Shown: piece by piece, positions 34,879-34,949 of the stretch
Layout: the number at the start of each line of letters is the position of its first letter
Numbering within the stretch: position 1 is the stretch's first letter
Virus record (IMG/VR): IMGVR_UViG_3300045118_000414
Source: a virus
Taxonomy: Duplodnaviria; Heunggongvirae; Uroviricota; Caudoviricetes
DNA length: 64,000 bases
Strand: one strand, 5' to 3'
Translations under genes and position numbers: made by a program
Notes under the pieces: model-generated
What the model was told of the DNA's origin: nothing
Seen by the model: only the letters and a program-made list of their open reading frames with translations
Database searches by the model: none

Positions 34879-34949
34879 CCCAAATGGTAGGATTCGAACC
34901 TACATTTTCCGCGATACCAATGTTATGGTTACGCCTTATGTGCATTTGG
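34879..34949 (-). ncRNA. tRNA-like element: acceptor stem CCAAATG/CATTTGG + canonical T-arm GTAGG-TTCGAAT-CCTAC but aberrant D/anticodon region (YrlA-like tRNA mimic?)
   Basis: hand fold: 7-bp acceptor and perfect T-arm at tRNA-correct spacing (71 nt), yet no 5-bp anticodon stem with 7-nt loop can be drawn. Confidence 0.35.

Follow-up and report, generated by a model that had tools for sequence, protein, structure and literature searches.

A tRNA-like acceptor/T-arm element between a small-protein gene and a Y-RNA-like module at a phage Ro60 locus, a candidate processing module

The 64,000-nt stretch of viral DNA analysed here (the window; Caudoviricetes, IMG/VR record IMGVR_UViG_3300045118_000414) encodes a Ro60 orthologue on its minus strand and, about 600 nt upstream of the likely start of this gene and on the same strand, a 71-nt tRNA-like element (34949-34879) made of an acceptor stem and a T-arm, which we call the clamp. 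The clamp belongs to an array whose parts are all co-oriented and follow each other in the order promoter, Y1, tRNA-Ala, Y2, Y3, small open reading frame (ORF), clamp, Y4, Y5 and Ro60, where Y1-Y5 are Y-RNA-like modules (Table 1). Since all parts point the same way, the array is probably transcribed as one polycistronic RNA, and the sigma-70-like promoter is the predicted start of the Y1/tRNA-Ala/Y RNA transcript. The Ro60 gene was recognized from a 596-codon frame (34399-32609) matching TROVE (5e-38) and vWA_Ro60 (1.8e-54), and its start was set by comparison with a relative. Upstream of the array, on the same strand, the genes for PNKP, RlaP, a NUDIX protein and a T4 Rnl1-type RNA ligase (37312..40954) constitute an RNA-repair island. 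The same Ro60 protein is present on contigs of up to 215 kb, hence the source is a jumbo phage of ~215 kb. A nucleotide search of the deposited phage genomes with the region gave no match, and the best Ro60 encoded in those genomes is only 42% identical to that of the window.

Table 1. Features of the Ro60 locus in the window, and clamps found at related loci (acceptor strands as 5' strand/3' strand).
Feature	Position	Strand	Details
Ro60/Rsr orthologue (TROVE + vWA_Ro60)	32609..34270	minus	likely start 34270 (MNKKTPY); open frame to 34399
Y5, long Y-like module	34297..34504	minus	stem UGAGGC[C]GA with UUGCCUCA, then U7; ends just before the Ro60 ribosome-binding site
Y4, Y-RNA-like RNA	34762..34878	minus	bulged-C terminal stem, then U-run
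tRNA-like clamp (acceptor/T-arm element), 71 nt	34879..34949	minus	from sequence, fold, covariance model and shuffles; acceptor CCAAATG/CATTTGG; interior 39 nt
Clamp, acceptor 5' strand	34949-34943	minus	
Clamp, 8-nt linker	34942-34935	minus	contains AUAAGG (possible D-loop remnant)
Clamp, irregular hairpin	34934-34911	minus	GCG-UA-ACCA-UAACAU-UGGU-AU-CGC
Clamp, 7-nt linker	34910-34904	minus	
Clamp, T-arm	34903-34887	minus	
Clamp, acceptor 3' strand	34886-34880	minus	
Clamp, discriminator G	34879	minus	
Conserved small protein gene	34929..35108	minus	59 aa; from ORF and relatives
Y3, Y-like module	35448..35571	minus	kept in L001 at 2621-2755
Y2, Y-like module	35574..35654	minus	stem AAGCUGAGU[C]GGA with UUU-AUUCAGCUU; starts 2 nt past tRNA-Ala
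tRNA-Ala(TGC), genuine	35656..35729	minus	CCA not encoded; 3' trailer CUA
Y1, Y-like module	35739..35803	minus	at 5' end of predicted transcript; ends just before tRNA-Ala
Sigma-70-like promoter	35808..35836	minus	TTGACT-17-TATATT; conserved in L001, the closest relative
PNKP	37312-38172	minus	
RlaP nucleotidyltransferase	38160-38876	minus	
NUDIX protein	39065-39484	minus	
T4 Rnl1-type RNA ligase	39881-40954	minus	
Clamp, L131-A	L131 2759-2943 and 3052-3217 (large clamps)		GCACATG/CATGTGC; interior 153 nt
Clamp, L131-B			ATATGCG/CGCATAT; interior 134 nt
Clamp, L136	2723-2915		ACCTATA/TATAGGT; interior 161 nt
Clamp, L001	3283-3428		distal 7-bp partner, interior 114 nt; or proximal 6/7 partner, 6 nt
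Clamp, L132			proximal 6/7 partner; interior 8 nt

Read on the minus strand, the clamp is CCAAATG-CACATAAG-GCGTAACCATAACATTGGTATCGC-GGAAAAT-GTAGG-TTCGAAT-CCTAC-CATTTGG-G. All seven pairs of its acceptor stem are Watson-Crick, and the 5-bp T-stem, which carries the canonical loop TTCGAAT, joins the 3' acceptor strand directly to give a 12-bp coaxial minihelix. The sequence and the fold thus bear out the original prediction of a 7-bp acceptor and a textbook T-arm spanning 71 nt; the minimum-free-energy structure, at -20.2 kcal/mol (z = -2.6) and accounting for 65% of the ensemble, consists of the acceptor, the T-arm and a single irregular hairpin. The clamp has neither a D-stem nor an anticodon arm, although its 8-nt linker possibly keeps a stemless D-loop remnant (AAGG). 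The interior, 39 nt long rather than the 37 nt first reported, was enumerated for stems of 4 or 5 bp closing a 7-nt loop and holds none, as expected from the earlier claim that no anticodon arm could form there; the only stem recovered was the 4-bp ACCA/UGGU with the 6-nt loop UAACAU. Position 3:70 is A:U, and the discriminator G is followed by the 3' trailer CUA (GCUA), not by CCA.

The Rfam tRNA model (RF00005) aligns the clamp end to end, skipping the D and anticodon arms as local ends, with 23.4 bits against a gathering score of 29 (E = 0.02-0.04 in searches of 0.6-1.3 kb). At the gathering threshold, a search of the whole window does not list the clamp, its score being non-significant on that scale, and this would agree with a chance match in AT-rich intergenic or coding-end sequence. 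We regard such a coincidence as extremely improbable: a 5-bp T-arm with the loop NTCRANN, combined with a 7-bp acceptor of Watson-Crick pairs only at the spacing of a tRNA, occurs once in the window as against 0.017 expected per window (300 dinucleotide-preserving shuffles), the syntenic elements of relatives covary, and the clamp is placed precisely beside a Y RNA. ARAGORN, run on the clamp in its default, relaxed, intron, mitochondrial and transfer-messenger RNA (tmRNA) modes, called nothing, and the sole tRNA that it reported was the genuine tRNA-Ala(TGC). Compared with a canonical tRNA, the clamp therefore has the 7-bp acceptor and the T-arm with a T-loop of the form UUCRANY, and lacks the D-arm, the anticodon arm (5-bp stem, 7-nt loop), a score at the curated threshold and detection by a tRNA finder. 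We ruled out a standard or intron-containing tRNA, given that no cloverleaf emerged from the five ARAGORN modes or from the Rfam model and that no interior stem closes a 7-nt loop. The leftover 3' half of a tRNA at an integration site (attachment-site repeat) was likewise rejected, as the clamp does have the complementary 5' acceptor strand.

The tRNA-like domain of tmRNA has an acceptor and a T-arm, a stemless D-loop and no anticodon arm. The clamp shares these parts, together with a helix that emerges between the D-loop region and the T-arm, but has no tag reading frame or pseudoknots and measures 71 nt against more than 250 nt. Moreover, it has no G3:U70 and no encoded ACCA end, which, along with the negative tmRNA mode of ARAGORN, rules out a tmRNA or mini-tmRNA. 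Among tRNA mimics, tmRNA has been named explicitly (bioRxiv 10.1101/312249). A tmRNA gene proper (Rfam, 51 bits) was seen at another metagenomic Ro60 locus, L041 (149-422), between a Y-type motif and a tRNA-Ala.

The original prediction had also likened the clamp to the tRNA-like domain of bacterial Y RNAs. As described in PMC4201824 and bioRxiv 10.1101/312249, YrlA is a circularly permuted tRNA mimic with T and D arms and an acceptor closed by a loop, in which the Ro60-binding stem replaces the anticodon stem and contains the ends of the RNA. The link to Y RNAs holds, with Ro60 downstream and Y4 adjoining, whereas the architecture is not the same, YrlA being permuted. Like YrlA-type Y RNAs, the clamp has a canonical T-arm and lies less than 1 kb from a Ro60 gene on the same strand (a Ro60/TROVE gene within about 4 kb characterizes the type), and its locus offers a Ro60-binding stem with a GNCGAA-like motif. 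However, the clamp sits beside this stem and not within it: the Ro60-type stem is part of YrlA itself, while here it belongs to the neighbouring tandem RNA, Y4, which has GUCGAAUCG within its bulged-C stem. The clamp contains no GNCGAAN0-1G near its 5' end in a 5'/3' terminal stem replacing the anticodon stem. Nor does it show the conserved, in YrlA nearly invariant, T and D stem-loops, the loop-closed acceptor or the permuted order (T, acceptor stem, D); its parts come in normal tRNA order, with an open acceptor, no D-stem and the T-arm only. No match to YrlA or other Rfam Y-RNA families was obtained at E <= 10 for the window region or for L001. Since the defining features of each family were tested and are absent, the clamp falls outside the tRNA, YrlA and tmRNA families.

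Relatives were compared at loci whose Ro60 proteins are 56-74% identical to that of the window. These loci are syntenic, with PNKP, an NT5C-like gene, a non-coding array, Ro60, a primase/helicase and a ClpB-like gene, and a close relative is present in IMG/VR; pattern searches of that database with two conserved blocks returned only the contig of L001, the remaining, uninspected matches probably being chance 16-mers. The unusual fold is kept in relatives, with compensatory changes in both the acceptor and the T stems. In the alignment of clamp cores 98.6% of cells are paired and 11 of the 12 pairs change on both sides, a result matched by 0 of 500 shuffles and contrasting with 32-44% in slid controls; in the giant clamps it was a complementarity search that located the 5' acceptor strands, so that the covariation of the acceptor, not that of the T-stems, is in part by construction. 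Perfect Watson-Crick 7-bp acceptors are present in four clamps. No variation was observed within the clamp among the near-identical contigs L137-L140. The interior ranges over 8, 39, 114, 134, 153 and 161 nt while the stems persist, hence selection acts on the minihelix.

These comparisons also bear on the explanation of the clamp as a relic without present function, either a tRNA in decay or what a deletion left of a larger tRNA-like gene. The scores below tRNA thresholds and the missing D and anticodon arms would fit such decay, as would the highly variable interior and the lack of a clamp in L129; furthermore, the window interior UUGGUAUCGCGGAAAA resembles, by eye, a fragment of the L131-A interior, UUGGUAUAGCGGAUAA, which suggests a deletion. 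Nonetheless, many compensatory changes have left the perfect Watson-Crick 7-bp acceptors and the 5-bp T-stems intact in relatives so divergent that the non-coding DNA on either side can no longer be aligned, and the T-loop is canonical in every copy. The trailer G-CUA, found in 5 of 6 clamps, and the base preceding the clamp, N(-1), a pyrimidine in all five clamps with a distal acceptor (U, U, U, C, C), likewise point to continued selection. We therefore consider decay quite unlikely, and conclude that the clamp is a real element, under selection and tied to the Ro60/Y-RNA system.

The large clamps of L131, L136 and L001 have structured interiors of 114-161 nt. Those of L131-A and L136 keep an 'AA' and a covarying D-stem (GCUU/AAGC and GCUG/CAGC), followed by an AAYGG D-loop start and large insertions, and at the place of this D-stem region the window clamp keeps only AUAAGG. 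In L131-A, L131-B and L136 the T-arm is preceded, at a distance of 26-30 nt, by a shared GGGCUUAY motif.

The Y-like modules share the motif GG(T/C)CG-N7-11-(G/C)GTTATC, of which there are four minus-strand copies between 35798 and 34481 and hardly any elsewhere in the window; a fifth copy, just past tRNA-Ala, begins AGTCG. Of 80 metagenomic Ro60 loci, more than half also carry this motif a short way upstream of Ro60, on the strand of that gene; its counterparts in YrlA are the GNCGAA motif bound by Ro60 and the conserved YUAY (PMC4201824). Within every module, N8-GG(U/C)[C]G on the 5' side forms a helix with UU-(A/G)YC-N8 further downstream, from which the C bulges out. These stems were judged by a pooled test over 159 motifs at 89 loci, the noisy per-module shuffle p-values being set aside: a full 8-bp partner, with U opposite the G after the bulge, was found for 76 motifs against 6 in shuffled controls, and the pair beside the bulge in these 76 is U:A (33), C:G (42) or U:G (1). 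The motif helix is the bulged-C helix that defines Y RNAs. A role of the repeats as a DNA promoter or operator is unlikely, since they occupy one strand only, the first copy is downstream of the promoter and the 3' strands covary. No Rfam family recognizes any of Y1-Y5; among 15 related loci the only Y-type Rfam match is a module of L027, which reaches the gathering score of the nematode sbRNA (Y-RNA) model. A compact rule, GG(U/C)[C]G...(G/C)GUUAUC plus a covarying 3' strand, finds Y-like RNAs beside metagenomic Ro60 genes. An isolated near-match to the motif, GGTCGAATTCTACCACATCGTATC, stands far from Ro60 on the minus strand (60249-60226) and may be due to chance.

Y4, the module that adjoins the clamp, has the features of a Y RNA in the broad sense: a covarying terminal stem with a bulged C, then G:U and A:U pairs. 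This stem, UAUCGGGU[C]GAAU[C]GGCUUGG with CCGAGCU..AUUU-AUCCGGUA, is paired at 13 of 14 positions, and an alignment with L131, L132 and L129 (four sequences) supports 23 pairs, 7 of them with compensatory changes. The Y5 stem has a covarying counterpart in L001, AUGAGC[C]G with UUUGCUCAU. At position 34872 two near-identical contigs, L138 and L140, have T for the first G of the Y4 GGTCG, which would break a G:C pair of the stem. Between Y4 and Y5 (~34690-34515, minus) there is a G+C-rich, strongly structured stretch without an Rfam match, which includes a 16-mer, TCACTGGTGGAGGTGC, identical in L001 (3593-3608).

The foot of the Y4 stem comes only ~1-2 nt after the clamp, as that of Y2 comes 2 nt after tRNA-Ala. 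L131, L132 and several metagenomic Ro60 loci show the same spacing, with ~31 nt from a T-arm to a Y motif, and genuine tRNAs precede Y RNAs in the window, in its relatives and in unrelated phage contigs; in nine IMG/VR phage contigs (~80-134 kb) a Y-type motif follows genuine tRNAs after 5-8 nt. Such tight adjacency, 1 nt from the discriminator to the Y4 stem and repeated in L131-B and L132, where a Y motif also follows the clamp, could mean that the clamp stays fused to Y4 as the 5' tRNA-like effector module of a composite, tandem Y RNA and tethers a tRNA-binding factor to Ro60, much as the tRNA-like domain of YrlA. Y RNAs with tRNA-like modules are established (PMC4201824; bioRxiv 10.1101/312249), and at metagenomic Ro60 loci many RNAs are single molecules that have the acceptor, the D-arm and the T-arm as well as a Ro60-type hairpin. 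On the other hand, Y4 of L129 directly follows the small ORF with no clamp, and no Y motif comes after the clamps of L001, L136 and L131-A; hence Y4 does not need the clamp, and clamps and Y modules assort independently. Additionally, M. smegmatis YrlA owes its status as a substrate of RNase P to just such an open 7-bp acceptor preceded by a pyrimidine at -1 (PMC4201824). On balance, a permanently fused composite seems unlikely.

Some RNAs of metagenomic Ro60 loci may be termed tRNA-shaped Y RNAs (L039 3682-3802; L027 3182-3294 and ~3672-3793; L072 2376-2491; L041 2618-2741; L007 973-1098). They have an open 7-bp acceptor and normal D- and T-arms, while a Ro60-type bulged-C hairpin, e.g., CCCUUGC-loop-GCAAGGGUCGAA..GGUUAUC, replaces the anticodon arm; they represent the unpermuted counterpart of YrlA and, scoring 40-50 bits on the tRNA model, would be annotated as a tRNA with an insert. 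A second, non-standard tRNA-like gene was found directly after tRNA-Ala, and before a Y2-type module, in L001 (1579-1661) and L129 (~2003-2085). The 7-bp acceptors of these genes are GGAGAGT/ACTCTCC and AGGGATT/AATCCCT, respectively, and ARAGORN calls neither. In the L001 gene the D-loop measures 16 nt and the 'anticodon' loop 6 nt, and the ACCA end is encoded.

RNase P, RNase Z/BN, the CCA-adding enzyme and the T-loop modification enzymes read the acceptor/T-arm minihelix. The minihelix and T-loop of the clamp are kept, its decoding part is absent, it stands at the junction of an mRNA and a Y RNA, and there are tRNA precedents; because of this, we favour, with a probability of roughly one half, the reading that the clamp is a non-decoding, autonomous tRNA-mimic processing module, which divides the array at this point and gives rise to a small, stable RNA of tRNA-like shape. 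From the observed structure, covariation, adjacency and context we infer co-transcription, cleavage, modification and CCA addition as follows. Host tRNA end-processing enzymes would treat the clamp as a pre-tRNA: RNase P would cut 5' of C1, between 34950 and 34949, and a tRNA 3'-end nuclease after the discriminator G at 34879. The two cuts would separate Y4 from the upstream small-protein mRNA, so that the 5' end of Y4 would coincide with the foot of its Ro60-binding stem, and they would free a ~71-nt tRNA-like RNA with protected ends, which could acquire T-loop modifications and a CCA tail. The viral tRNA mimic recruiting RNase P, CCA-adding or modification enzymes, which the original prediction had suggested besides the Y-RNA likeness, is the best fit to the anatomy and position of the clamp, such recruitment being predicted.

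Precedents exist in Y RNAs and elsewhere. In D. radiodurans, Y RNAs share with tRNA-Asp the precursor from which they are made, and the YrlA of M. smegmatis, whose acceptor has 7 bp, undergoes RNase P cleavage and receives a CCA tail (PMC4201824); RNase P cleavage also forms the ends of tRNA-like structures in long non-coding RNAs (bioRxiv 10.1101/312249). The clamp resembles the RNase P/Z-cut signals of MALAT1 and MEN-beta (mascRNA type) in placing a tRNA shape at the boundary of two functional RNAs, here as an intact minihelix set 0-1 nt from the small-ORF mRNA on one side and from Y4 on the other, and its predicted cuts would, as in those cases, create the ends of the neighbours and free a small tRNA-like RNA. 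Unlike the clamp, mascRNA keeps a cloverleaf-like fold; the clamp is known from sequence, is of bacterial/phage origin and is linked to Ro60 and Y RNAs. The precursor of phage T4 species 1 RNA and mitochondrial tRNA punctuation are tRNA-like processing signals as well. By analogy, the clamp may work like these known signals.

Several points weigh against the processing module. The last seven codons of the small ORF, including the stop, overlap the first 21 nt of the clamp (5' acceptor strand and linker), and a cut by RNase P would sever the mRNA seven codons before its end, with loss of the stop codon; the N-terminal ~50 residues of the protein are kept in four relatives and its tail is not. 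C1:G72 and C8 are atypical of good bacterial pre-tRNA substrates. The clampless Y4 of L129, the three clamps that no Y motif follows and the partly constructed acceptor covariation count here too, and cleavage at the clamp ends is itself deduced from the sequence.

The ribosome-binding regions of this small ORF (35122-35106) and of Ro60 (34285-34268), both on the minus strand, read GGAGUCG(A/U)(A/U), as also found in L001 (4117-4132), and resemble the Ro60-binding GNCGAA of the Y modules; speculatively, Ro60 might bind its own mRNA through this motif. Between Y3 and the small ORF, a stretch of ~330 nt (35440-35110, minus) folds strongly (-97 kcal/mol), and its reading frames are all implausible. 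As Y3 of L001 is directly followed by the small ORF, the stretch in the window looks like an inserted non-coding segment.

The location of the clamp in an RNA-repair island and the autonomy of clamps as modules raise the alternative of a free-standing, trans-acting tRNA mimic, a decoy or substrate for a tRNA-directed host nuclease or for the phage RlaP, PNKP and Rnl1, whose adjacency to Y4 would be incidental. Ro60/TROVE with a tRNA-like partner has indeed been proposed as an RNA-repair platform of jumbo phages (PMC7824862). Yet the clamp has no anticodon loop, the usual target of anticodon nucleases, its loop being of 6 nt, and RlaP, PNKP and Rnl1 are not linked specifically to the clamp RNA; we hold this alternative to be improbable. 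More broadly, and only tentatively, the clamps might form a natural 'tRNA scaffold' family in the ~215-kb phage clade, in which the minihelix and the D-loop remnant enclose a cargo of 8-161 nt and are matured and stabilized by host RNase P, RNase Z and the CCA-adding enzyme; together with the Y RNAs, Ro60 and RlaP/PNKP/Rnl1 they would make up a counter-defence or RNA quality-control module. The 71-nt clamp of the window would then be a minimal, near-empty scaffold.

Phage Ro60 with Y-like RNAs is already known from mycobacteriophages, CcrColossus, Bacillus phage G and Thermus phage phiLo (Yrl1/Yrl2). These systems resemble the window in having Y-like RNAs just upstream of Ro60 and a CGAA motif in the 5'/3' stem; the window locus differs in a Ro60 that is at most 42% identical to its deposited phage counterparts, and in five Y-like modules interleaved with a tRNA and the clamp. 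The literature passages covered on phage Ro60 and Y RNAs mention no clamp-type element, and no open acceptor/T-arm clamp that holds a variable cargo and stands in tandem with Y RNAs turned up in the literature searched. Conservation of Ro60 and Y RNAs extends from bacteria to humans. To this system the locus adds five Y-like RNAs missed by current RNA family models, along with a compact sequence rule, and it presents a solution unlike YrlA, namely an open-ended acceptor/T-arm mimic in tandem with Y RNAs, in a phage with tRNA-repair enzymes. Should tRNA-processing enzymes indeed cut the clamp, it would provide a simple rule for how phage Y RNAs gain their ends and would be a natural counterpart of the engineered 'tRNA scaffold'.

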